From Caldicellulosiruptoraceae bacterium PP1 (lineage in GTDB: Bacteria > Bacillota > Thermoanaerobacteria > Caldicellulosiruptorales > Caldicellulosiruptoraceae), in the NCBI GenBank assembly GCA_041320695.1, contig JBGGOQ010000002.1, positions 21,618 to 85,617 of the forward strand: DNA of 64,000 nucleotides, given 5' to 3'. Positions 33,736-55,581 of this stretch are shown piece by piece (position 1 is the first letter of the stretch; each line of letters opens with the position of its first letter). A program made the translations under genes and the position numbers. Under the pieces are notes generated by a model. It searched no databases, was not told where the DNA came from, and saw only the letters and a program-made list of their open reading frames with translations.

Positions 33736-34305
33736 TTAAAATTGTACTAGAGAATAAATTTCATCCTTTTGGTCTTGATTTACTCCAATATATCTTAAAG
33801 TTATACTCTGAGAGCTATGATTAAAAGTATCCATTATTAAACCTATGTTATATTTAGATATTTTATATGTCCAATACCCCCATGTTTTTCTCAAACTATG
33901 AGTACCAAAATTTTCTATACCAACAATTTGTGAGGCTTCCTTCATAACTTTATAAGCTTGTATGCGACCAATGTGACCACCTTTTTGACTAAAAAATAAA
34001 TAACTATCATAAGTTAAATTTTGTTTTTCTATGTATGTTTTTATAGCATCACGAAGAACATTATTAAGCTTTATTTTCTTTTCTTTTTTCGTCTTTTTTT
34101 CTTTAACTATAAGATAATTATAAAACTCTCCTTTTTCATTTAGTATATCAGAAACTTTTAGTGGTAAGATATCACTTATTCTTAATCCAGTATTAAGCCC
34201 AAATTTTAAAAGCAAAGCATATTTAGGATCTTTTTCATTTAAATAATTGTACATCTGCTTTATTTTACTTTTGTCTCTTATTGGCTCAACTGTCACTTTA
34301 ACCAT
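33736..34305 (-). CDS. small tyrosine-type site-specific recombinase (FimB/FimE/RecV-sized, catalytic domain only)
   Basis: 189 aa. Catalytic tetrad candidates R (GLRISD), K, H-x-x-R (HSLRKT) and the Tyr nucleophile (LRYIG). The in-frame GTG at 34296, about 9 nt after AGGAG, may be the true start. The ATG at 34305 abuts that SD. Confidence 0.75.
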   Translation of the reverse strand: MVKVTVEPIRDKSKIKQMYNYLNEKDPKYALLLKFGLNTGLRISDILPLKVSDILNEKGEFYNYLIVKEKKTKKEKKIKLNNVLRDAIKTYIEKQNLTYDSYLFFSQKGGHIGRIQAYKVMKEASQIVGIENFGTHSLRKTWGYWTYKISKYNIGLIMDTFNHSSQSITLRYIGVNQDQKDEIYSLVQF

Positions 34306-34372
34306 CTCCTAAATGCAATGTTACATTCAAATATTATATAAAAGGATTTATGATATTACAACAAACAATGAT

Positions 34373-34401
34373 TTGAAGAAATAATTTAGTATTCCTATAA
34401 A
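34373..34401 (+). promoter_or_regulatory. candidate outward-facing promoter TTGAAG-17-TATAAA inside the IR-bounded segment
   Basis: -35 at 34373-34378, 17-nt spacer, -10 at 34396-34401, oriented towards the right IR, the riboswitch and the che operon. Sequence pattern only. Confidence 0.25.
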
Positions 34402-34421
34402 TATAGAACAAATAAGGCATT

Positions 34422-34458
34422 TCGAAAAATAAAAAAGCAACAAAATACATAATTTGTT
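34422..34458. repeat. right copy (inverted) of the 37-bp repeat
   Basis: TCGAAAAATAAAAAAGCAACAAAATACATAATTTGTT is the reverse complement of 33529-33565. Confidence 0.6.
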
Positions 34459-34562
34459 TCATTTCTTATATTGATAAAAAATATTATTTCGCATAGTTTT
34501 ATTAAAACAAAGATAATTAACCTTGTTATGCCATACCAAAATAATAACAACACTTTATATGT

Positions 34563-34685
34563 CGAAAAAGGCAAACCTATCGAAAGATAGGGACGCAAAG
34601 CTATGGGTCTAAGGGATTTATATTGGTATATTAAGAGTTATTTTTAAACTTAATTTACCTATGATTGCCAGGCTGCCGAAACATA
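34563..34685 (+). ncRNA. c-di-GMP-I (GEMM) riboswitch aptamer
   Basis: GGCAAACC UAUC GAAA GAUAGG GACGCAAAGC UAUGGGUCUAAGG ... CCAGGCUGCCGAAA matches the GEMM P1/P2 core known from the Vc2 riboswitch (GGCAAACC...CGAAAG...GGGACGCAAAGCC...GGCCUAAACC). It includes a 6-bp GAAA-tetraloop helix. Confidence 0.65.
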
Positions 34686-34736
34686 TGCAATACTAGACAA
34701 ATAATAAATAGTTTTGTATATGTTTTTACATATTAA

Positions 34737-34770
34737 TAGGCACAATGGCAGTTATTGTGCCTATTTTATT
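34737..34770 (+). terminator. riboswitch expression-platform terminator
   Basis: TAGGCACAAT ggcagtt ATTGTGCCTA followed by TTTTATT, about 20 nt before the RBS GGAGG and the ATG at 34792. Confidence 0.6.
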
Positions 34771-34791
34771 AAAATTATGGAGGAATGATTT

Positions 34792-36687
34792 ATGGAGAAA
34801 AAGTTAATTGAACCCAAAAAAATATCAAGTAGACCAAGCAGTACAACAAAGAATGTAGACAATAAGATTAAAAGCAAAACATTGGTAAGGCAGCAACAGC
34901 TATCCGAAAGGTTAGCAGCTGCAGCAGCACAACTTATGGCAGGAATTGAAGAATCTACGGCTGCTGTTGAACAGCTAAATAAAAGTGCAGAACAATTAGC
35001 AGCATCAGCAGAGGAATCATCTGCAGCAGTTGAGGAATCAAAAGCAGCAACAGAAGAAATTAAAAAATCATCAGCTGTTGCTTTAAGAAATTCAGTTGCA
35101 TTAAATGATAGGGCTAAAAACCTAAGTGTTGCTGTAAACGAAACCTCAAAAAGAATTCAAGAGTTAATTGAGGATATTAAGTTATCAGCTAAGAAGAAGC
35201 AAGTTTTAGCGAATATGGTTCATGAACTTGATGCATATTCTAATGAAATAGCCAATATTGTTTCAAATGTTGCAAAGATTGCTGACCAAATAAATTTGCT
35301 TGCATTAAATGCTGCTATTGAAGCTGCAAGAGCTGGTGAACACGGTAGAGGTTTTGCTGTTGTTGCTGACGAGGTAAGAAATCTTGCTGAAGTTGCAGAA
35401 AAATTAGCAAATAATGTAAAGTATATTGTTGAACAAGTAAACAATGGTATAAAAAATGTTGTTGATAAGATTCAACAATCAGTAAAATATGAAGATGAAC
35501 AAGCAAATATTGGTGATGATATATTAAATAATCTAATTAGAAATACACAATCGTTTGAAATTGTTTTAGAAAGGACATCAGATATACATTTAACTTCACA
35601 AAAAACATCTGATGCAATGAATGAATTTTTAAAACTTGTGGAAAATATAGCAACTGCTTCAGAACAAATTGCATCATCAGCAGTCGAAATAAGTAAATCA
35701 ACTGCAGAACAAGTTACAGCTTATAATGAAGCTAATAGTAGAACAAATGAACTTAATGAATTGGCTGAAGACCTCAGAAACTCAACAGATGCTGAAAAAG
35801 ATGCAAGTAAAATTGCTTTATTAGCTGATGAACTTTCTTCTGCTATTGAAGAGATATCCTCATCGTTAGATCAGATTCATGAAGCTTTAAGACAAATTGA
35901 AACAGCTTCAAAAATTGAATCAGAACATGCAGAAGAAGGGCGTGAGGAGATTAGCAAGATAGTCAATGATTCTCAAAAGCAAAGACAAATAGTAAACGAG
36001 TTAGACCAGGTGATAAATAAATTCTCAATTGATTTAAATGAAATTACTAATACAAGCTTTAAATTGATTGAGAATATAACTGAAACACTGCAAATAAACC
36101 ACGAGATAATTAACTTAATGAAAGATATTGAAAAAAATTCACGAAATTTAGAAAAAATTATTGAATCAATAGCATCAGTAACCGTCCAAACAAATATGTT
36201 AGCAGTGAATGGTTCTATTGAAGCAGCAAGAGCTGGAGAATTTGGGAGAGGGTTTTCTGTAGTTGCAACAGATATAAGAACTTTAGCGGGTGAATCTACA
36301 GAAAATGCAGATAATATGAAAGATATTGTAAGAAACGTTCAAAACCAAATAACAAAAATAATAACAGATATCGACAATGCTGTAAATACAACTACATTAT
36401 CAATTGAAAAATCAAAAAAGGATATCTACCAAATGAAAGATACTCTAAAATTAGTTGATGAAATGAAAAAGGCTTCAGATGAGATTAACGTTGAAATTGA
36501 GCAGGTTTTAACAGCAATTGAACAACTTCAGAAAGGCTTTGAAAATATTAGTTCTGCTGCCCAAGAAAATCTATCAGCAGTTACAGAAGCAACTAATGCA
36601 GCTTTAGAACAAAAACGTGGAGCAGATGATTTAATTGCAGCAGTGCAAGATATTTCAAGCTTAGCAGAAGAGATTGAAACAATGTAA
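34792..36687 (+). CDS. soluble (no TM) methyl-accepting chemotaxis-like protein with two MA signalling domains
   Basis: Two copies of the conserved MCP signalling core: [32 protein letters not shown] (about aa 170-200) and [34 protein letters not shown] (about aa 465-500). No hydrophobic segment. Confidence 0.85.
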
Positions 36688-36695
36688 GAAGGGAC

Positions 36696-38123
36696 TTGGT
36701 AGATATGAACAAAGATAAAGATAAGAACAATATGATAGTTAGCTTCAAATTAGGGCAACAGACAATAGGTATATCTATAAATAATGTTAAGGAAATAATT
36801 AGAGTTCCAGAGATTACGCCAGTTCCTTTAACAGTTTCTTACTTTGCTGGACTAATTAATTTACGTGGAGACATTATTCCTGTTATTGACCTAAAAGAAA
36901 AATATAAAATTGATTCCATTGGAGCAACTGAGGATAGAAGAATTATAGTTATAGAAGAAAATATGAAAAAATTTGGTATTATTGTTGATAAAGTTCTTGA
37001 TATTACCGAATATGATGAAGAAGATATTGATAAGAAAAAAATAGGAAGTTACGAAGAAATTGAGGCAATAATTAAACAAGAGTCAAAGCATAGAATTGTA
37101 GTTCTTATTGATATTGCAAAGGTTGTTTCTGAGAATATTATTTTATTTAATTATTCAAACAAAAAAGAGTCAAAAACACAGCATTCAAAAGAGCTGAAAA
37201 ATAATATATCTGAATCTGAAAGCCGATTTATACTTTTTGAAATATGTGAGCAAAATTATGCATTAGAAATAGAAAAAATAAAAGAAATAATGCGATATAC
37301 TGAACTGTCAGAGATACCAGATAATGAAAACAATATTGATGGCGTTATAAATCTTAGAGGTGAGGTAATACCAATTATAAATTTATCTAAAATAATCGGA
37401 TTACAAAATATACCAATAACTGATGCAACAAGAATAATTATTTTGATGGAGAGCGATTATAAAGTTGGATTCATTGTTGATAAAGTAAATGCTGTTCTAT
37501 CAGTAGCTAAAAGTGATATTAAAGAGCCTAGTTTTTTAATAAGCAGTAAAGAAATTATTAAAAATATAATTAATGCTAAAGATTGCTTAGCTATGGTTTT
37601 GAACACAAGCAAGATTTTATCGGGATTCGAGGAAAAAATTAGAAGTGATTATAACACAGGAGATGAATTTATTGGTATGGATTCAAAAAATGATGAAATG
37701 CAAGTAGTAATATTTGAGACTGATAATCAACTTATGGCTTTAAACATTACTGATGTTAAAGAAATAAATAAAGTTCCAAACATTGTTCCACTACCACAAG
37801 AAAGAGAATATATTAAAGGGATTGCTAACCTAAGAGGCGAAATTATTCCAATTTTTGATCTTGATAAATTATTCTATCAAACACAAACAACAATTAATGA
37901 TTCGTCAAGAATAATAATAGTTGAAATAGGAAATAAAAAATATGGAATAATAGCAAAAAAAGTTCTTAGCGTTTCAAGTTTTGGAGATAAAGATATAATT
38001 GAACTGGACAATGAAGAAAACCAAATAAATGTTGATATTGAAAAAAGATATATAAAGTCAGTTCTTAAAAAAGATGAACAGGTTGTTATTGTATTAAATA
38101 CATCTTCGATAATTCATCAATAA
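36696..38123 (+). CDS. triple-CheW-domain coupling protein
   Basis: Three CheW-like repeats end in GLINLRGDIIPVIDL, GVINLRGEVIPIINL and GIANLRGEIIPIFDL. Confidence 0.85.
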   Translation: MVDMNKDKDKNNMIVSFKLGQQTIGISINNVKEIIRVPEITPVPLTVSYFAGLINLRGDIIPVIDLKEKYKIDSIGATEDRRIIVIEENMKKFGIIVDKVLDITEYDEEDIDKKKIGSYEEIEAIIKQESKHRIVVLIDIAKVVSENIILFNYSNKKESKTQHSKELKNNISESESRFILFEICEQNYALEIEKIKEIMRYTELSEIPDNENNIDGVINLRGEVIPIINLSKIIGLQNIPITDATRIIILMESDYKVGFIVDKVNAVLSVAKSDIKEPSFLISSKEIIKNIINAKDCLAMVLNTSKILSGFEEKIRSDYNTGDEFIGMDSKNDEMQVVIFETDNQLMALNITDVKEINKVPNIVPLPQEREYIKGIANLRGEIIPIFDLDKLFYQTQTTINDSSRIIIVEIGNKKYGIIAKKVLSVSSFGDKDIIELDNEENQINVDIEKRYIKSVLKKDEQVVIVLNTSSIIHQ

Positions 38124-38138
38124 GGTGGTAACTTAATA

Positions 38139-39191
38139 ATGATAAATGTTTTAGTAGTAGATGATTCAGCTTTTATGAGAAAAAAAATCAAGGAAATGAT
38201 TGAAAGTGACAGGCAACTAAAAGTTATTGATACAGCAAGAGATGGAATTGAAGCAATTGAAAAAGCTGAAAAATTAAAACCAGATGTAATTACATTAGAT
38301 GTTAATATGCCTAATATGGATGGACTTAAAGCATTAGAAATAATAGTAAATAAAAGAATAGCACCAGTTATTATGTTATCATCATTAACCTATGATGGAG
38401 CTAAAACCACCTTTGAAGCTCTCGATTTAGGAGCATATGATTTTGTTGCAAAGCCTAGTGGAACAATTTCTTTGGATATTGAAAAGGTAAAAGATGAATT
38501 AATTGAAAAAATAAAACTTGCTTATAATGCTGATGAAAATAAAAAATATTTAGTTAGAAAAGATAGAACAAATATTAAAAAAATTGCTGGGGTCATTAAG
38601 CATGATGCATTTAAAGCTGTTGCAATAGGAATATCTACTGGTGGGCCTAAAACAATTATGGATGTCATTCCATATTTACCACGAAATTTAAATGCTGCAA
38701 TATTTCTGGTTCAACATATGCCACCTAATTTTACTACACAATATGCAAATAGGCTAAATGATTCATCTGATATTACTGTTGTTGAGGCAAGTGCAGGTAT
38801 GACTGTTGAAAAAGGAGTATGTTATGTAGGGAAAGGTGGATATCACCTGACCCTACATAAGTCTATTGATGAAAAAATTAGAATTAGACTTACACAAAGT
38901 CCTAAACATCAGTTTATGCCCTCGGTAAGCGTTATGATGAATTCTGTATTAAATATTTTTGGTGCTAATACCATAGGTGTTTTGATGACTGGCATGGGAG
39001 ATGATGGTGCTGATATGATGGTAAAAACAAAAGAAATAGGTGGAGTTACAATCGCTGAATCTCAAGAAACAGCAGTTGTTTTTGGAATGCCAAAAGAAGC
39101 AATTAAAAGAGGTGGAGCAGATTTTATAATACCATCTTATGAGATAGCTGAAAAAATAATAGAATTAGTAGGATTGTTTGAGGAGGAGTAA
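38139..39191 (+). CDS. cheB: chemotaxis methylesterase CheB (receiver + CheB_methylest)
   Basis: N-terminal receiver (VLVVDDSAFMRK...D) and a C-terminal methylesterase with catalytic Ser-His-Asp region (GISTGGP...HMPPNFT...GMGDDGA). Confidence 0.9.
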   Translation: MINVLVVDDSAFMRKKIKEMIESDRQLKVIDTARDGIEAIEKAEKLKPDVITLDVNMPNMDGLKALEIIVNKRIAPVIMLSSLTYDGAKTTFEALDLGAYDFVAKPSGTISLDIEKVKDELIEKIKLAYNADENKKYLVRKDRTNIKKIAGVIKHDAFKAVAIGISTGGPKTIMDVIPYLPRNLNAAIFLVQHMPPNFTTQYANRLNDSSDITVVEASAGMTVEKGVCYVGKGGYHLTLHKSIDEKIRIRLTQSPKHQFMPSVSVMMNSVLNIFGANTIGVLMTGMGDDGADMMVKTKEIGGVTIAESQETAVVFGMPKEAIKRGGADFIIPSYEIAEKIIELVGLFEEE

Positions 39192-39193
39192 GA

Positions 39194-39553
39194 ATGAAAG
39201 TAATGATTGTAGATGATTCACCTATGATTCATAAATTATTAAAAAAAGAAATAGAGAAAAATGGACACCAAGTTGTTTTTATAGCTTCAAATGGTAAAGA
39301 AGCTGTAGAAAATTACATGAACGTTAAGCCTGATATAGTATTTATGGATCTAACAATGCCAGTTATGGAGGGTGACCAGGCATATAAAGAAATAAATAAA
39401 ATTGATAGTAACTGTAAATTTGTTTTTTTAACTGCTCTGGGTGATAATAAAGAATTATTTGAGAATGATAAAAATATCATAAGGATCATAAAAAAACCAT
39501 TTAAACCAGATGAAATAAAAGAAATACTTATGGTGGTAGGTGCTATGTCATGA
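39194..39553 (+). CDS. CheY-like single-domain response regulator
   Basis: 119 aa receiver (KVMIVDDSPMIH...DLTMPVMEG...K). Confidence 0.9.
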   Translation: MKVMIVDDSPMIHKLLKKEIEKNGHQVVFIASNGKEAVENYMNVKPDIVFMDLTMPVMEGDQAYKEINKIDSNCKFVFLTALGDNKELFENDKNIIRIIKKPFKPDEIKEILMVVGAMS

Positions 39554-40026
39554 CTGATTTAATAAATATGCAAATATCAGAAAGCTGCGATAAAGTTGTT
39601 TTGGATGTTTTTACGCAGATGACAGATATTGAACCAGAAAGAGTAAATTATCGAGAAAATAATCTCAATGAAATAGAATATGATGGCATAATCTCAATAG
39701 TAAGTTTTACTGGAGAAAAAAGAGGAAGAATTATTCTTGGTATTCAAAAGATATTAGCTGATTATATCACTTTACAGGTATATGGGAAATCTAATCCAAC
39801 AAATGATGAAGTCCTTGAGGTGATATCAGAACTAAATAACATAGTATCAGGAAATATAGCATCAGAATACAAAAAAATATCTGGGATAATAATGAAGGTT
39901 ACACCCCCATCTATTTTTTTCGGGAAGAGAATTATTGTTTCAACAGCACAAATTACAAATAGCAGGTATGATTATTTAACTTTATATGGCTCCTTTTTTC
40001 TTAATGTAGGATTTGAAAGGGGATAA
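39550..40026 (+). CDS. CheC/CheX/FliY-family phosphatase-like protein
   Basis: 158 aa with an E-x-x-N motif (SELNNIVSGN) as in CheC/CheX CheY-P phosphatases. Overlaps cheY by 4 nt. Confidence 0.6.
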   Translation: MTDLINMQISESCDKVVLDVFTQMTDIEPERVNYRENNLNEIEYDGIISIVSFTGEKRGRIILGIQKILADYITLQVYGKSNPTNDEVLEVISELNNIVSGNIASEYKKISGIIMKVTPPSIFFGKRIIVSTAQITNSRYDYLTLYGSFFLNVGFERG

Positions 40027-40032
40027 AAGCAG

Positions 40033-40494
40033 ATGGCTGAAGAAATATTTAACTCTTTTGATAAGGCATTAAAAAATATATTAGGGCAATTTAACATGTT
40101 ATATGTAAATATAAATAGCTCATGTGATTTACAAAATATAGAAAGTAAAACACCAATAAATATAATATTAGGGCTATTAGGAGATTTAAGGGGTAGTGTT
40201 ATTATTGGTATGGATAATAAATTGGGCAATAAATTAGTAGAAAATATTAGTGACGGTTTTATGAATGATATAAACTCAGAGATGGCAAGAAGTGCTTTAT
40301 CAGAACTTGGAAATATGATAACTGCATATGCAAGCACAAATCTATTTTCATATGGATATAAAACAGATATCACTACTCCTACATTGGTTGTAGGAGAAGA
40401 CTTGACTGCAATTGTATGTAGAACTCAATCCAAAATGATGACTTATGTAACTGAACATGGAAATGTTCAAATGGTTATTGGGTTATGGCAATAA
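40033..40494 (+). CDS. CheC-like protein (second CheC/CheX-family member)
   Basis: 153 aa with an E-x-x-N motif (LSELGNMITAYAS). Confidence 0.6.
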   Translation: MAEEIFNSFDKALKNILGQFNMLYVNINSSCDLQNIESKTPINIILGLLGDLRGSVIIGMDNKLGNKLVENISDGFMNDINSEMARSALSELGNMITAYASTNLFSYGYKTDITTPTLVVGEDLTAIVCRTQSKMMTYVTEHGNVQMVIGLWQ

Positions 40495-40510
40495 GGAGCA
40501 TTATTTATAT

Positions 40511-41335
40511 ATGAAAAAAGAATTAGAAAGTATTTATTATAGAGAGATTAGAAGAATTATTGAAAATGAGTGTGGGATATATTTGTCCGAAGACAAAGAT
40601 AATCATGTCAAGATGAGATTAAACAAAAGGATGAATGAACTGTCAATACCGGATATTTACCATTATTTTAATTATTTAAAACAAGATAAGAAAGAAATTC
40701 AAAAACTTATTAATGAAATAACAGTAAACGAAACTTATTTTTTTAGAGAATTCGATCAGCTTAAAGTTTTTGGTGAAATATGTTTATTAGAGATAGCACA
40801 AGAAAAGAACCAAAATACAAGAAAAATAAGGATTTGGTCTGCAGGGTGTTCTACTGGAGAAGAACCATATTCATTGGCTATTATTGCAAAAGAGATTCTT
40901 GGAGATGAATTTGAAGTTGAAATCTTAGCTAGTGATATTGATCAAAATGTGTTGAATAAAGCAAAAATGGGTATATATGACAAAAGGTCAGTAAGGTATC
41001 TTCCAGATGAATATTTAAACAAATATTTTATTAAAGTAGAAGAAGGCTACAAAATTAACAATGAAATCAAAAAAATGGTAAAATTCTTTCATCATAACTT
41101 GATTAAATATGATGAATATAGTCTATTTAATAATGTGGATTTTATTTTTTGTCGAAATGTATTGATTTATTTTTCAGATGAGAATAAAGCTAAAGTTGTT
41201 CAAGGATTTTATAATGTTCTAAATAATGGAGGATATATTTTTCTTGGACATTCTGAGTCTGTAGGTAGATTATCTAATTTATTCAAGTTGGAAAGAAAAG
41301 ATGGATATATAGTCTATAGGAAACCTCATATATGA
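40511..41335 (+). CDS. cheR: chemotaxis protein methyltransferase CheR
   Basis: SAM-dependent methyltransferase motifs (IWSAGCSTGEEPYSLA...DIDQNVL...FCRNVLIYF). The ATG at 40511 follows AAGGAG. The ORF track extends to 40457 and overlaps the previous gene. Confidence 0.85.
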   Translation: MKKELESIYYREIRRIIENECGIYLSEDKDNHVKMRLNKRMNELSIPDIYHYFNYLKQDKKEIQKLINEITVNETYFFREFDQLKVFGEICLLEIAQEKNQNTRKIRIWSAGCSTGEEPYSLAIIAKEILGDEFEVEILASDIDQNVLNKAKMGIYDKRSVRYLPDEYLNKYFIKVEEGYKINNEIKKMVKFFHHNLIKYDEYSLFNNVDFIFCRNVLIYFSDENKAKVVQGFYNVLNNGGYIFLGHSESVGRLSNLFKLERKDGYIVYRKPHI

Positions 41336-41351
41336 ATGAGAGGTGTTATAA

Positions 41352-43166
41352 TTGAAAATAACTGTTTTAAAGACTGAATTTGATATTTTGGTTGATTTTA
41401 TTAATGAATCTAAAGAACATTTGGAGAATATCGACTCACTCATATTAAAAATAGAAGAAACACTTAATATTGATGACATTAATGAATTGTTTAGAAAAAT
41501 TCATACAATAAAAGGTTTATCTGGTTTTTTAGAAGGACTTGTTGATGTTACTGTCTTATGTCAAATTGTAGAAGAGGTTTTGGATAAATTAAGGAAAAAC
41601 AATATAAAAGTATCATCTGAGATAATAGAATATTTGCTTAAAAATGTAGATATTATCAAAAAGGTAATGTATAAATTAGAGGAAGGTCTTAATAAAGGTG
41701 AAGATATCAATTTTGAGATTGACTTTGATTTATCGTGGTCTTCAAGTCAGAAAGATATGTTAATTAAATCAAATTTATCTGAGAATGAAATTTCAGAAAA
41801 TAGCTTAGACAATAATACTAAGATTGAGAATGAATTAGATAAAAATCAAGAAGAGAATAGAAACTTAAATGTTGATGATGAATATAATAAAAACAATACT
41901 TCAAACAATGATAAATCAGAAAATAAAATTGAGTCAATTGATAATAACAGTACAATAAAAAATGAATATATTAATGAGGACATAAAAATCAGTTATCAAA
42001 AAATAGACAAATTATTAGGGTTAATAGGTGAAATTGTTTCTACCAAAAACTCTTTTTCATATTTACTAAAGGAAATAGAGATAAATAAAAACAATGAGGC
42101 TGTAAAAAAACTTTCAAACCAAATAAAATTTATACATCGTACAGCAGATGAGATTCATGCTGAAATTATGAATATGAGAATGATACCATTAAGCGGTATC
42201 TTAAAAAAATATAATAGAATTGTTCGTGATTTGGCACAAAAAATGGGTAAAAAAGTTGCTCTTAATATAGATTGCGGTGATGTAGTAATTGATAGAAATA
42301 TTGTTGAAAGATTAAATGACCCATTAATACATTTAATACGAAATAGTATAGACCATGGGATTGAAAAGCCAAAAGATAGGAAAAAATATGGGAAAGATGA
42401 AAAGGGAAATATTATAATAAAAGCAAATAATAGAGGAAGATATATTGAAATAAGTATATCAGATGATGGAAAAGGAATAGATACAAAAAAGATATTAAAG
42501 AAGGCAATAGAAAAAGGAATAGTAAGCAAGGAACAGGCTAAATCAATGAATGATAATGATATTATTAATTTAATTTTTTATCCTGGAATGTCAACAGCTG
42601 AAGTAGTAACAGATATATCTGGTCGTGGTGTGGGGATGGATGTTGTAAAATCAACCATAGAAAGGTTAAAAGGTGAAATAGAAGTAAATTCTGAAAAGAA
42701 CATAGGAACTGAATTTAAATTAAAAATACCTTTATCTGCTGCATTAACACAAGGTGTTTTAGTTTCATTTGAGGGAATAAATTATATTATACCTATGGAC
42801 TATGTGGAAGAAACTATAAAGATAAATAAAGACAAAATTGAGTATCTGATTGATAGAGCAGCAGTTAATATTAGAGGCGAGGTAATACCAATAGTTCCAC
42901 TATCCTATGCCCTTTATTATAAAGATAAGTTACCAATTAATTATATTGATGAAATAATGGGTAATGAATCTTTATTACCTATTTTAATTGTTAAAATAAG
43001 AAATGAAAAAGTAGGTATTGCAGTTAATTCACTAATTAGAAATGAAGAATTTGTATTAAAACCATTACCAACTGCTATAGCAAACAACAAAATAGCTTTG
43101 GGAGCCAATATTGATGTTGAAGGTAATGTAGTAATAGTATTAAACCCTGAATATTTTAATTTATAA
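41352..43166 (+). CDS. cheA: chemotaxis histidine kinase CheA (second copy), with an Asn/Asp-rich low-complexity linker
   Basis: Hpt (IHTIKGLSGFL), HATPase_c (DDGKGID...GRGVGMD) and a C-terminal CheW-like domain. TTG start 6 nt after GAGAGGTG. Confidence 0.9.
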   Translation: MKITVLKTEFDILVDFINESKEHLENIDSLILKIEETLNIDDINELFRKIHTIKGLSGFLEGLVDVTVLCQIVEEVLDKLRKNNIKVSSEIIEYLLKNVDIIKKVMYKLEEGLNKGEDINFEIDFDLSWSSSQKDMLIKSNLSENEISENSLDNNTKIENELDKNQEENRNLNVDDEYNKNNTSNNDKSENKIESIDNNSTIKNEYINEDIKISYQKIDKLLGLIGEIVSTKNSFSYLLKEIEINKNNEAVKKLSNQIKFIHRTADEIHAEIMNMRMIPLSGILKKYNRIVRDLAQKMGKKVALNIDCGDVVIDRNIVERLNDPLIHLIRNSIDHGIEKPKDRKKYGKDEKGNIIIKANNRGRYIEISISDDGKGIDTKKILKKAIEKGIVSKEQAKSMNDNDIINLIFYPGMSTAEVVTDISGRGVGMDVVKSTIERLKGEIEVNSEKNIGTEFKLKIPLSAALTQGVLVSFEGINYIIPMDYVEETIKINKDKIEYLIDRAAVNIRGEVIPIVPLSYALYYKDKLPINYIDEIMGNESLLPILIVKIRNEKVGIAVNSLIRNEEFVLKPLPTAIANNKIALGANIDVEGNVVIVLNPEYFNL

Positions 43167-43217: not shown

Positions 43218-45068
43218 ATGAAGGTTGATATTTATATGGATAATATTTTTGAAAAGTTAAGAAGTAAAAATATTATTGATAAGAATTTTCTGTATTTTGT
43301 AATACCTATATTAATTATAATTGCCATATTTTCTGTATTAATTGTTTCAAATATCTTCTTCAAACAGGTTGAACTTCAAAGGAAGGCTGAATTAAAACAG
43401 AAGGTTGAAATTGCTTATAATACAATTTTGCCAATAATAACAATGAAGAGAGAAAACAAGATTTCTAAAGAAGAAGCAATAAAAAGGATTACAGATATTG
43501 TAAGAAATATGACTTTTAATGATGAATTTTCAAAAAACTATATATTTATGAGCTCATATGATGGAACATATTTGGTACAGCCTTTTGAACCAGAAAAAGA
43601 AGGAACAAATCAATGGAATTATGTAGATATAAAAGGTAAATATATAATAAGAGAGCTTGTTAAAGCAGCAAAAAAGTATCCGCAAGGTTCTTATGTTTCA
43701 TATTATTCATATTTACCGCATTCAAAAGAATATCAACCAAAGTTATCATATGTAAAAGGTATTCCAGAGATTGAAGCATATATTGGAACAGGTATGTATA
43801 CCCAAACAACTTTTAAGAATTTGTATACCCTATTAAATATTCAGCGTCTTATTTTGATATTATCATTTTTGTTTGTTATTATGTTTATACTTATTTATAC
43901 ACAAAACCTAAATAAAAACTATCTTTTATTAAAGAACGAAATAATAAGAAGAAAACAATTAGAAGAGGAGTTAATAAAAGAAAAAAATGATTTAATAAAT
44001 TATCAAAAACAATTAGATTATATAGCCATTCATGATTTATTAACTGGTTTATATAATTATAATTATTTTACTTCTTTAATTTCTTCTTTTCCACAAAATG
44101 AAAGTTTACCATTAAGTATTATTATGTTTGATGTTAATGGTCTTAAATTAATAAATGATACTATGGGACACACCTATGGAGATAAGTTATTAGTGTCGTT
44201 TGCAAAAATATTACTATCTTCAAAAAGAAAAAATGATATAGCAATAAGAATTGGCGGAGATGAGTTTTTATTAATTTTACCTAATACTAATCATAAAAAA
44301 GCAGAGGAAATAACAGATACAATTAAAAGGAATATTGAAAAATATAACAATAATCTTAAAGAAAAACTCCTTGTTTTAAGTGTAGCAACTGGATTTGCTA
44401 CATTAGAAAATAATAATCAAAATTTGTTTGAGATTTATAAACAAGCTGATGACAATATGTATAAGGATAAGCTACTTAATAAATTAAGCTCAAAAAATCA
44501 GATAATTAGTGTTTTGTTAGCTGCTTTGGGAGAAAAAGATAATGTAACCAAAGGACACACTGATAGGGTTAAAAAAATGTGTGAATTAATGGCCCAAAAA
44601 TTAGATTTAGATGATACTCAAAAAAATAATTTAATTTTACTTTCTGAGATGCATGACATTGGTAAAGTGGCAATACCTGATTCAATATTAAACAAAAAGG
44701 AGCCATTAACAAAAAGAGAATGGGAAATCATAAAAAGTCATTCAGAAAAAGGTTATAGAATTGCTTTGGCTTCTCCAGAGTTAGGATCTATAGCTGAACT
44801 AATTTTAAAACATCATGAAAAATGGGATGGGACAGGCTATCCTCTTGGAATAAAAGGGGAAGAGATACCAATTGAGTGTAGAATATTAGCTTTAGCAGAT
44901 GCGTACGATGCTATGACAAATCTACGGCCATATAATAAGGTTAAAACTCATGAAGAGGCTATTAGAGAAATAAAATATTGTTCAGGTACACAATTTGATC
45001 CTAAAATAGCTGAAATATTTATTGAATTATTTGAACCTTATCATAGTAATTCGACCAGATTGAATTGA
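43218..45068 (+). CDS. membrane sensor diguanylate cyclase/phosphodiesterase (periplasmic Cache-like domain + GGDEF + HD-GYP)
   Basis: 2 TM (about aa 25-46 and 205-226) flank an extracytoplasmic domain. GGDEF motif IRIGGDEFLL. HD-GYP domain HDIGKVAIP ... HHEKWDGTGYPLG. Confidence 0.85.
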   Translation: MKVDIYMDNIFEKLRSKNIIDKNFLYFVIPILIIIAIFSVLIVSNIFFKQVELQRKAELKQKVEIAYNTILPIITMKRENKISKEEAIKRITDIVRNMTFNDEFSKNYIFMSSYDGTYLVQPFEPEKEGTNQWNYVDIKGKYIIRELVKAAKKYPQGSYVSYYSYLPHSKEYQPKLSYVKGIPEIEAYIGTGMYTQTTFKNLYTLLNIQRLILILSFLFVIMFILIYTQNLNKNYLLLKNEIIRRKQLEEELIKEKNDLINYQKQLDYIAIHDLLTGLYNYNYFTSLISSFPQNESLPLSIIMFDVNGLKLINDTMGHTYGDKLLVSFAKILLSSKRKNDIAIRIGGDEFLLILPNTNHKKAEEITDTIKRNIEKYNNNLKEKLLVLSVATGFATLENNNQNLFEIYKQADDNMYKDKLLNKLSSKNQIISVLLAALGEKDNVTKGHTDRVKKMCELMAQKLDLDDTQKNNLILLSEMHDIGKVAIPDSILNKKEPLTKREWEIIKSHSEKGYRIALASPELGSIAELILKHHEKWDGTGYPLGIKGEEIPIECRILALADAYDAMTNLRPYNKVKTHEEAIREIKYCSGTQFDPKIAEIFIELFEPYHSNSTRLN

Positions 45069-45149: not shown

Positions 45150-45245
45150 AATATTAAAAATTGAAAAAGGCAAACTCGTCGAAAGACTGAGACGCAAAGC
45201 CACAGGCCTAAGGTATATATATGCTATGATGGCTGGATTGTCAAT
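45150..45245 (+). ncRNA. second c-di-GMP-I (GEMM) riboswitch aptamer
   Basis: GAAAAAGGCAAACUCGUCGAAAGACUGAGACGCAAAGCCACAGGCCUAAGG ... GGCUGG. About 75% identical to the aptamer at 34563 over the conserved core. Confidence 0.55.
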
Positions 45246-45329
45246 TGATATTTATAGATAAGGGCTAATAAAGAAGATTTAGGTAAAAAACAACCTCTAT
45301 ACTAAGTCTTACTTATAATAAGTTTAAAA

Positions 45330-45362
45330 CGGGCAACTCACATATTGCCTGTTTTTTTTATT
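45330..45362 (+). terminator. expression-platform terminator of riboswitch 2
   Basis: CGGGCAA ctcacata TTGCCTG followed by TTTTTTTTATT, 20 nt before the RBS GGGGGAAAA and the ATG at 45382. Confidence 0.6.
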
Positions 45363-45381: not shown

Positions 45382-45561
45382 ATGAGGTTAGCACTATTAA
45401 ATGATAAAGTTATTGGTAAAAAATTAGGAATGCCTATTTTTTCATCAGAAGGAATAATAATTTTAAGCCAAGGAACTGTTTTAACTGAAAGAATTATCGA
45501 AAGATTGAGACAAATAGGTGTGGGAACAGTATATATAGATAATGAAACTTTGAAGAAGTGA
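45382..45561 (+). CDS. 59-aa ORF resembling the N-terminal regulatory domain found at the start of HD-GYP phosphodiesterases (orphan or truncated)
   Basis: MRLALLNDKVIGKKLGMPIFSSEGIIILSQGTVLTERIIERLRQIGVGTVYIDNETLKK*. The pattern (hydrophobic-G-x-x-L-x-x-D-I, G-x-L-L, G-T-x-L-T-x-x-I, L-x-x-x-G-I-x-x-V-Y-I) is typical of HD-GYP N-terminal domains. It ends in TGATGATAA, is below the ORF-track size cutoff, and has an RBS. Confidence 0.4.
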   Translation: MRLALLNDKVIGKKLGMPIFSSEGIIILSQGTVLTERIIERLRQIGVGTVYIDNETLKK

Positions 45562-53634: not shown

Positions 53635-55581
53635 ATTTACATCCCTTATAGGTAGGCTAAGAACAAAAGAAATCTTGACCTTGAATGGACAGAAGTAAAA
53701 TAGTTTCAATCCCTTATAGGTAGGCTAAAAACGGTGCATGGTTAGCCAAGAACAAAATCCAAAATAGATGTTTCAATCCCTTATAGGTAGGCTAAAAACC
53801 AGGTCATATCCTTCATATTTTTCAAGGAATTCTAAGTTTCAATCCCTTATAGGTAGGCTAAAAACGCTGGAAAAAGCAGATGTAAACATGGTAGGAAGAT
53901 GTTTCAATCCCTTATAGGTAGGCTAAAAACTTAAGTTTTCTAAAGTACAACGTGGCACTTCTTTAGTTTCAATCCCTTATAGGTAGGCTAAAAACCTTAA
54001 AAGAATTAGTCGAGGCAATTCGGGAAAGCGTGTTTCAATCCCTTATAGGTAGGCTAAAAACTGACTAACAATAGTTTTATTAGAAAGAATGCCAACGTTT
54101 CAATCCCTTATAGGTAGGCTAAAAACTTTTTTATTTCTTGCCATTCATACACTTTATCAGCGTTTCAATCCCTTATAGGTAGGCTAAAAACTCAGACAAA
54201 TTTAAAGGTAATTATAATCAAATGGCAGTTTCAATCCCTTATAAGTAGGCTAAAAACCAGTCCAAAAGTTGCAGCCTGTATCAAAAAAGAATGTTTCAAT
54301 CCCTTATAGGTAGGCTAAAAACTATAACACTTGGAGTTATTTTGTGTTTACTAATATTTGTTTCAATCCCTTATAGGTAGGCTAAAAACCTTATGAAGAA
54401 GACTCAACAGTATCAACAGAACAGATGTTTCAATCCCTTATAGGTAGGCTAAAAACTCTGTCTTTTATATTATTTTGTAGCATGTATTCAAGTTTCAATC
54501 CCTTATAGGTAGGCTAAAAACAGTCATAATCATTAGTAACTTTAAAAACTGGTATAAGTTTCAATCCCTTATAGGTAGGCTAAAAACCCAGCAGGCTTTG
54601 ATTGCCTGCTGCAGGAATGCAGGGTTTCAATCCCTTATAGGTAGGCTAAAAACTGATGAAAAATAAATTTTTACTTGTCTGTTATTAGGGTTTCAATCCC
54701 TTATAGGTAGGCTAAAAACGTGGCACCAGAACAAACTTTTTATTCATCAGTTAATGTTTCAATCCCTTATAGGTAGGCTAAAAACGCTAAAAAAGGACCT
54801 GATAGTGTGGAGTATGGAATGTTTCAATCCCTTATAGGTAGGCTAAAAACGATTGTCAGGTCTGCCACTGTCTTGCTGGCAAGGTAGTTTCAATCCCTTA
54901 TAGGTAGGCTAAAAACTTGGCAGATGATATATAGCAACCCAACTGATCCAGGTTTCAATCCCTTATAGGTAGGCTAAAAACCTTGTTTGATACATTTGCA
55001 TGATGGACCACCGACGAGTGTTTCAATCCCTTATAGGTAGGCTAAAAACTGACAGAGAAACAAGGACAAGAAGCATTTTAGATATGTTTCAATCCCTTAT
55101 AGGTAGGCTAAAAACCGTTTCCCTCATTCTCTTTTCCAACGTCATCACCTCCGTTTCAATCCCTTATAGGTAGGCTAAAAACCTAAAGTTGTCGAGGAAA
55201 TAAGACAAATGATATCGGCGTTTCAATCCCTTATAGGTAGGCTAAAAACGAGCAACAAAATATTGACTATTCAGTAATTGATATTGCGTTTCAATCCCTT
55301 ATAGGTAGGCTAAAAACTTCAGCCCAAAAAGTTAAGGAAACTGAACAACAGGTGTTTCAATCCCTTATAGGTAGGCTAAAAACGCCACCAGACAGCGAAA
55401 TAGAGCGTTTACAACGTTAGTTTCAATCCCTTATAGGTAGGCTAAAAACATGGTTTTCCGGTCATTGGTGTTATCAATTATGATTGTTTCAATCCCTTAT
55501 AGGTAGGCTAAAAACAATCAACTGAAAATATTATAAGTTTCAGGAAGCGGAGTTTCAATCCCTTATAGGTAGGCTAAAAAC
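53635..55581 (-). CRISPR. CRISPR array with 30 repeats (29 perfect or near-perfect plus 1 degenerate terminal repeat) and 29 spacers of 35-38 nt
   Basis: The 30-nt repeat GTTTCAATCCCTTATAGGTAGGCTAAAAAC on the plus strand is GTTTTTAGCCTACCTATAAGGGATTGAAAC on the minus strand, ending in the ATTGAAAC 5'-handle motif. Repeats were located individually (first at 53703, last at 55552). The degenerate repeat ATTTACATCCCTTATAGGTAGGCTAAGAAC at 53635-53664 marks the trailer end. An AT-rich leader follows 55581. The repeat at 54228 carries a G-to-A variant. Confidence 0.95.

Follow-up and report, generated by a model that had tools for sequence, protein, structure and literature searches.

Riboswitches and Chemosensory Clusters Related to the PP1 Locus

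Class I riboswitches for c-di-GMP (cyclic diguanosine monophosphate), also called GEMM RNAs, and their link to motility and chemoreceptor genes are well known. The element considered here is a predicted riboswitch of this class in front of an F9-type chemosensory operon of Caldicellulosiruptoraceae bacterium PP1, found on a 64,000-nucleotide (nt) stretch of contig JBGGOQ010000002.1 (positions 21,618 to 85,617, forward strand), which is referred to below as the window and whose first letter is position 1. Cd1 (Cdi-1-3), found in Clostridioides difficile ahead of the flgB flagellar operon, belongs to the same aptamer class and likewise comes from the Clostridia. Its operon is long and behaviour-related, and the RNA, situated in the 5′ leader, employs an intrinsic terminator and terminates transcription in response to c-di-GMP (PMC6366702), as is predicted for PP1. 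The two differ in that the target of Cd1 is flagellar whereas that of the PP1 switch is an F9 cluster, the PP1 operon also contains a GGDEF-HD-GYP gene, the P3 helix of the PP1 aptamer has a 44-nt distal extension, and the PP1 switch is known from sequence alone. Bc1, which precedes mcpE in the Bacillus cereus group, resembles PP1 in having a GAAA-tetraloop/receptor aptamer, a methyl-accepting chemotaxis protein (MCP) as the product of the first gene, and a long expression platform with two hairpins in succession and U-runs after them (PMC11218506). Bc1, however, precedes a single ordinary MCP gene rather than a complete che operon, and its ligand unfolds the first terminator while the second masks the effect, whereas the second hairpin of PP1 has an antiterminator partner inside the aptamer. 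Matches to Rfam family RF01051 were also detected upstream of MCP gene matches in Sporosarcina and Halalkalibacter. The RNA from Halalkalibacter alkaliphilus (locus L017, 19287-19372, minus strand, 79.3 bits) has an A at the position equivalent to G20 of the Vc2 aptamer (AAUAGCAAAC), a substitution that is associated with the GEMM-Ib riboswitches that sense 3′3′-cyclic GMP-AMP.

The chemosensory genes have their closest described counterpart in Vibrio cholerae. The F9 class is recognized by two signature proteins, DosM, which has tandem signalling domains and no sensory domain, and a triple CheW (PMC9321776); in V. cholerae it forms cytoplasmic two-layered arrays whose function has been called elusive (PMC7534058). 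Full F9 clusters occur in about 2% of surveyed species and are still described as functionally elusive (PMC9321776, PMC7534058). Both signature proteins of V. cholerae Cluster I (DosM VC1403 and triple CheW VC1402) share the domain architecture of their PP1 counterparts, and the CheA, CheY, CheB, and CheR set is present. The V. cholerae arrays are reported to form under low oxygen or carbon starvation, whereas expression of the PP1 cluster is predicted to depend on c-di-GMP through an RNA; c-di-GMP is not mentioned in the review of the V. cholerae F9 system (PMC7534058). The PP1 cluster also differs in encoding two phosphatases of the CheX/CheC type and in having a Cache-GGDEF-HD-GYP gene attached to it.

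Each half of the PP1 arrangement occurs elsewhere, because one metagenomic RF01051 match (L165, 364-448, 75.7 bits) precedes an MCP-REC-STAS-CheA-MCP-CheR cluster and another (L151, 6555-6643, 79.4 bits) precedes a GGDEF-HD-GYP gene. Neither locus unites both halves, however, and both RNAs have a short P3. The L165 cluster does not look F9, since neither DosM nor a triple CheW turned up in the six open reading frames (ORFs) scanned. An earlier note on this DNA had described the PP1 arrangement as an unusual regulatory loop, which is partly fair but not without precedent.

Identity and Anatomy of the Aptamer

When the whole window was searched with cmscan against all 4227 Rfam families, a single match was reported for the aptamer site. 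It assigns 34561-34681 (plus strand) to the c-di-GMP-I clan with 71.9 bits (gathering score 59; E = 4.6e-15) over the full length of the model, and returned with E = 2.2e-17 when 34500-34800 was scanned alone. Every core position is conserved in an alignment of the PP1 aptamer with four canonical c-di-GMP-I aptamers. The match is far beyond chance and points to a genuine class I (GEMM) c-di-GMP riboswitch aptamer. This bears out the earlier note, which had placed a c-di-GMP-I riboswitch at this site on the strength of the core GGCAAACC UAUC GAAA GAUAGG GACGCAAAGC UAUGGGUCUAAGG ... CCAGGCUGCCGAAA; the core is located at 34570-34681, inside the stretch it had given, and the contact nucleotides are canonical.

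The ligand contacts were numbered through the 27-nt spacing between G20 and A47 and the 3-nt spacing between C44 and A47, with reference to the published equivalences (Vc2 G20/A47/C92; Vc1 G12/A39 with C36; Bc1 G11/A38). G34570 lies 27 nt before the A47 equivalent, a spacing identical in Vc2, Vc1, and Bc1, and C34594 is the equivalent of the interhelical C44. All pairs of P2 and P3 are standard, and the GNRA (GAAA) tetraloop together with its receptor corresponds to the type 1 two-hairpin architecture; tetraloop and receptor would be predicted to dock, and the aptamer would be expected to bind c-di-GMP. The P1 pairs C34563-G34678 and G34564-C34677 belong to the best-scoring Rfam model, and 7 bp more (34556-34562 with 34681-34687), read directly from the letters and all standard, extend the helix across an AA bulge. 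In transcripts ending at 34690-34700, P1 is predicted with a probability of 0.64-0.74. The distal segment of P3 (34615-34658) is A/U-rich, contains a hairpin of its own and is unusually long, at 44 nt versus 5-21 nt (mode 8) in 72 measurable metagenomic aptamers, a rough comparison in that these 72 come from 123 metagenomic aptamers sharing a 45-nt core pattern, the other 51 being without a match to the 3′ pattern.

The best-scoring model is RF03167 (c-di-GMP-I-GGC). The Rfam search that the earlier note had proposed therefore yielded a clan member above its gathering score, but with RF03167 as the best model instead of the RF01051 that the note had named. The clan filter kept the RF01051 score from being displayed, even with the P1 flanks cut off; it also suppressed a second family of clan CL00126, its identity not displayed, that exceeded its own gathering score in 34500-34800. 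The leading position of RF03167, well above the gathering score, could be taken to mean that the RNA is a true member of that family and senses either a ligand other than c-di-GMP or c-di-GMP in a different manner, which we regard as very improbable. The ‘GGC’ in the family name presumably denotes G20, G47, and C92, with G replacing A47. The RF03167 consensus reads GACGCGAAG where that of RF01051 reads GACGCAAAG, and in the alignment the PP1 aptamer has GACGCAAAG, with A at 34597 in the position where the GGC variant would carry G. Because G34570, A34597, and C34676 are all canonical, the PP1 RNA is not classed as a GGC variant, and its ligand-contact positions appear to be those of an ordinary c-di-GMP-I aptamer. 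Furthermore, 15.8 of the 71.9 bits are contributed by the P1-bearing flanks, without which the RF03167 score drops to 56.1 bits, and the length-tolerant, simple P3 loop of that model may favour its higher score. Cross-matches inside the clan look routine, since scans that gave five ordinary RF01051 matches elsewhere also left out four hidden clan matches.

The Downstream Operon

The leader is assigned to the downstream operon because the upstream gene, a phage-integrase fragment, is divergent; for the same reason the 486-nt intergenic region (34306-34791) must contain the operon's own promoter. The promoter candidate listed in Table 1 is a weak one, such matches being no commoner here than in shuffled sequences.

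Downstream lies a predicted nine-gene operon with a cytoplasmic chemosensory cluster that is assigned to the F9 class because it encodes both a triple CheW and an MCP of the DosM type. The MCP has two conserved hairpin-tip motifs (residues about 177-200 and 477-502), and beyond PP1's own entry (100%) its next relative is 52% identical. The cluster encodes its own CheA, CheY, CheB, and CheR (Pfam), as full F9 clusters do, and by analogy with the F9 class a two-layered cytoplasmic array would be predicted for PP1.

The last gene encodes a protein in which the RKND (RxxD) I-site, GGDEF, HDIGK, and HHEKWDGTGYP motifs are intact and transmembrane segments are present. The gene is likely to be co-transcribed with the che genes, given the 51-nt gap after cheA and the lack of any plus-strand terminator-like site between 34770 and 45326 other than a 5-bp one inside cheB. 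The earlier note had described a complete che-type pathway ending in a c-di-GMP enzyme. Its gene content is confirmed by Pfam, with the cluster now assigned to F9, but the enzyme has no receiver (Response_reg) domain in Pfam and does not appear to be the output of the pathway. A role as the output of a Wsp-like pathway, in which the cyclase carries a receiver domain and is phosphorylated by CheA, was accordingly rejected; with its sCache_2 domain and transmembrane segments, the protein looks like a separate Cache-domain membrane sensor.

Table 1. Features of the PP1 riboswitch locus and its surroundings (positions in the window)
Feature	Position	Strand	Details
Divergent upstream gene, phage-integrase fragment	33736-34305	-	189 aa
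Candidate sigma-70-type promoter, TTAACC-17-AATAAT	34517-34545	+	9 of 12 matches; start near 34552, just upstream of P1
Predicted complete aptamer domain including extended P1	34556-34687	+	Rfam match 34561-34681; aligns with canonical aptamers
P1 5′ strand, UAUAUGUCG	34556-34564	+	pairs with 34677-34687 (CG-aa-ACAUAUG); 9 bp, AA bulge
G20 (Vc2) equivalent, predicted ligand contact	34570	+	junction G, unpaired, immediately 5′ of the G-C pairs of P2
P2 (P1a) hairpin	34571-34596	+	GAAA tetraloop 34582-34585; from model structure line; 8 of 8 pairs standard
A47 (Vc2) equivalent, predicted to intercalate between the two guanines	34597	+	invariant A in canonical examples
P3 (P1b) helix	34599-34674	+	receptor halves CUAAGG 34609-34614 and CCUAUG 34658-34663
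Putative antiterminator 5′ strand (aptamer 3′ half)	34661-34677	+	34661-34670 with 34746-34755 (10 bp); 34674-34677 with 34739-34742 (4 bp)
C92 (Vc2) equivalent, predicted Watson-Crick contact to ligand	34676	+	junction C, unpaired in the model, immediately 5′ of the 3′ strand of P1
Hairpin H1	34678-34726	+	13 + 4 bp (17 bp), A/U-rich, 13-nt loop
Predicted intrinsic terminator T2	34735-34770	+	10-12 bp stem, 7-nt loop, tail UUUUAUU ending at 34770
Ribosome binding site GGAGG and start codon of first gene	34779-34794	+	GGAGG 34779-34783; ATG 34792-34794
DosM-type MCP gene	34792-36687	+	Pfam MCPsignal, 2 stretches; no sensory-domain Pfam match
cheW3, three concatenated CheW domains	36696-38123	+	475 aa; Pfam CheW, 3 stretches, 295.6 bits
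cheB, cheY, cheX, second cheX/cheC-like gene, cheR, cheA	38139-43166	+	Pfam; genes overlap or are at most 16 nt apart
sCache_2-GGDEF-HD-GYP membrane sensor gene	43218-45068	+	51 nt after cheA
Second predicted c-di-GMP-I aptamer	45159-45245	+	RF01051, 66.5 bits; 91 nt after the GGDEF-HD-GYP gene
CRISPR array	53703-55581	+	29 repeats (RF01315); repeat GTTTCAATCCCTTATAGGTAGGCTAAAAAC

The Expression Platform and the Predicted Direction of Switching

The whole leader folds better than all of 200 shuffled versions (z = -5.99), and three elements of the region downstream of the aptamer bear on its function. The first is the terminator T2, whose stem consists of 10 bp (34737-34746 with 34754-34763; three G-C, two C-G, and five A-U/U-A) with two further A-U pairs out to 34735/34765, and for which energies of -13.8 to -15.8 kcal/mol at 37 °C and of -5.8 to -6.3 kcal/mol at 70 °C are predicted. 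The earlier note had reported a 10-bp stem and U-run terminator just before the ribosome binding site of the MCP gene, and T2 agrees with it. T2 was not listed on the plus strand by a simple terminator scan, which may be an artefact in that the scan extended the stem into the U-run and too few T residues were left in the tail window. The second element is the hairpin H1. Its 5′ arm shares nucleotides with the 3′ strand of P1, and U34723-U34726, from a run of five U residues (34723-34727), belong to its 3′ arm. In the folding model, H1 and P1 exclude each other: H1 has a probability of 0.96 in the free ensemble and of at most 0.13 when the aptamer is enforced, and it supplants P1 by the time the transcript reaches 34727 (H1 probability 0.97). 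We read H1 as a competitor of P1 and an antiterminator clamp, although it could alternatively be a weak first terminator.

The third element is a 14-bp antiterminator in which the 3′ half of the aptamer would take the 5′ arm and the loop of T2, with H1 sitting between its two strands. From 70 °C upwards, the fold of lowest energy for the full leader contains this pairing, and in the 70 °C fold AGGCA (34569-34573) additionally pairs with UGCCU (34758-34762). The energy of the duplex (-21.2 kcal/mol) was reached by 1.45% of dinucleotide-shuffled aptamer halves, by 0.25% of other segments of the window, and not once among 2000 random hairpins matched in composition. In nascent transcripts ending at 34750-34760 the antiterminator is dominant, with a probability of 0.9-0.98 at 37 °C and, once 34756 has been reached, of 0.52-0.92 at 60-70 °C; for transcripts that end exactly at 34756 the latter range is 0.58-0.92. 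With the aptamer enforced, its probability falls to 0 and that of T2 is at least 0.95.

We lean towards reading this leader as a transcriptional OFF switch in which c-di-GMP promotes termination, a direction that the earlier note had not given. The aptamer would emerge first during transcription, and c-di-GMP bound at G34570, A34597, and C34676 would lock P1 and P3, which would bar H1 from the P1 3′ strand and the aptamer 3′ half from pairing downstream. The T2 hairpin (34735-34765 plus the U-run) would then form and transcription would end before the ribosome binding site. When the ligand is absent, H1 would displace P1, and the aptamer 3′ half would capture the 5′ arm and loop of T2 (34739-34755) before the T2 3′ arm emerges, allowing read-through into dosM-cheW3-cheB-cheY-cheX-cheX/C-cheR-cheA and probably also the Cache-GGDEF-HD-GYP gene. 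As modelled, the arrangement would work in the way classically described for kinetic OFF switches. In C. difficile, each of the seven class I riboswitches that are functional is a termination OFF switch (PMC6366702). Translational control was rejected as the main mechanism, no CCUCC-like anti-ribosome binding site sequence being found in the leader.

Several observations weigh against an OFF switch of this kind. At equilibrium the full-length leader has T2 at a probability of at least 0.9 with or without the aptamer enforced, and the antiterminator at only 1-5%; because T2 is thereby kept folded in both states, the OFF model would have to rest on co-transcriptional kinetics. Taken by itself, the equilibrium result speaks neither for nor against a kinetic switch, and the nascent transcripts were the more informative guide. 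The energy model also misses the native P3 helix altogether (probability about 0), so that all ensemble figures given here are approximate. H1, at -15.4 kcal/mol at 37 °C, is barely stable at 70 °C (-2.2 kcal/mol); the window contains no tRNA genes by which to judge thermophily, and a literature search found no paper on strain PP1. The F9 loci checked (see below) offered no orthologous leader for covariation analysis. Class I riboswitches may be ON or OFF switches, moreover, and the direction cannot be extrapolated between species (PMC6366702), and Bc1, which also precedes an MCP gene with a similar two-hairpin platform, is unresponsive to c-di-GMP in vivo (PMC11218506).

Bc1 also provides the model for a different reading of the same platform, in which H1 with its U-run is a first terminator relieved by c-di-GMP, T2 acts as an attenuator that is either constitutive or under separate regulation, and the net response to c-di-GMP is ON, weak, or absent. 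In Bc1 itself c-di-GMP unfolds the first of two terminators ahead of an MCP gene and the second persists and masks the effect (PMC11218506). In PP1 it is H1 alone that shifts strongly when the aptamer is enforced, with T2 folded in both states at equilibrium, and the UUUUU run at 34723-34727 holds the H1 3′ arm. H1 would nevertheless make a poor terminator, as its 9-bp basal stem has two G-C pairs, its loop is 13 nt long, four of the five U residues of the run are paired within the hairpin, and its core amounts to only -10.6 kcal/mol at 37 °C and -0.2 kcal/mol at 70 °C. Termination would, in addition, occur in both states, and the statistically unusual complementarity between aptamer and T2 would be left unexplained. 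We consider such a Bc1-like platform unlikely for PP1 and retain the OFF switch as the preferred reading.

Distribution among F9 Loci

PP1 was compared with 11 orthologous F9 loci, which come from Clostridia, Acidobacteriota, and Proteobacteria (L001-L005, L081, and L083-L087, with L082 being a second copy of L081). A contig profile search with a DosM alignment caught generic MCP tip peptides and hence mostly unrelated MCP loci, only L001-L005 looking orthologous; L081-L087 were obtained by exact-protein look-up. No c-di-GMP riboswitch was found in the 10 F9 loci scanned with Rfam, nor in L005 and L082, which were covered by the core-motif pattern and blastn only, and blastn detected no similarity to the PP1 leader in the 11 loci. 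In the seven loci for which genes were called (L081-L087), the operon never ends in a c-di-GMP enzyme gene. From this absence in the F9 loci checked, the riboswitch and the GGDEF-HD-GYP gene therefore appear to be additions specific to the PP1 genome or lineage.

The restricted distribution also bears on whether the switch functions at all. Presence of the element in one genome only, against 11 orthologous F9 loci without it, and the truncated integrase gene that flanks it could indicate a real aptamer whose regulation is vestigial, in a leader that was acquired recently or is decaying and in which ligand binding has ceased to affect expression; non-functional c-di-GMP riboswitches have been documented in C. 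difficile and for Bc1. We think this improbable, as the conserved core nucleotides, tetraloop, receptor, P1, terminator, and antiterminator are all intact and no signs of decay were seen.

In L086, too, an integrase gene immediately precedes the F9 cluster, and in L081 a gene of the UPF0236 family (PF06782) is found upstream. Such neighbours fit the reported horizontal mobility of F9 clusters. In the closest relative, about 2.2 kb (L081 14843-17080; L082 14843-17082) is inserted between cheY and cheX of the F9 operon; the L082 insert contains a 512-aa ORF with an SSO2105_N domain and looks like a mobile element splitting the operon.

A Second Aptamer and Other Features of the Window

The second c-di-GMP-I aptamer (Table 1) has U at its C92 equivalent (GAUUGUCAAU), such that its contact positions read G-A-U. 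It is followed by a terminator-like hairpin (45326-45355), a 59-aa ORF (45382-45561) without a Pfam match and then addB/addA. Read-through transcripts of the che operon would reach this aptamer, because no terminator lies in between. Further downstream the window contains an array of clustered regularly interspaced short palindromic repeats (CRISPR), with no cas gene among the flanking genes scanned (addB/addA upstream, ROK-family and sugar genes downstream).

Biological Implications

Under the OFF model, high c-di-GMP would switch off the F9 array together with an enzyme of c-di-GMP turnover, forming a feedback loop whose sign would depend on which net activity that enzyme has, cyclase or phosphodiesterase. 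We tentatively suggest, as a possibility on the doubtful side, that in the PP1 lineage c-di-GMP directly gates production of the F9 array and that the operon has acquired a Cache-sensor cyclase/phosphodiesterase of its own, so that array expression and the level of c-di-GMP are joined in a feedback circuit; if this is true and the HD-GYP activity is dominant, a bistable circuit would result. The GGDEF-HD-GYP sensor, which is probably co-transcribed, would add one of the less common cases of feedback to the class I riboswitches, for which the new element here is the F9 target. The physiological meaning that we infer for the arrangement comes from a single genome, and it may be a local and recent invention that perhaps says nothing general about F9 systems. 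A predicted ligand-specific RNA before a complete F9 operon nonetheless constitutes direct genomic evidence, at least in one organism, for membership of an F9 cluster in the c-di-GMP regulon. If the proposed circuit is borne out, it would place the F9 system in the network that decides between motile and sessile life and give a concrete experimental handle on it.

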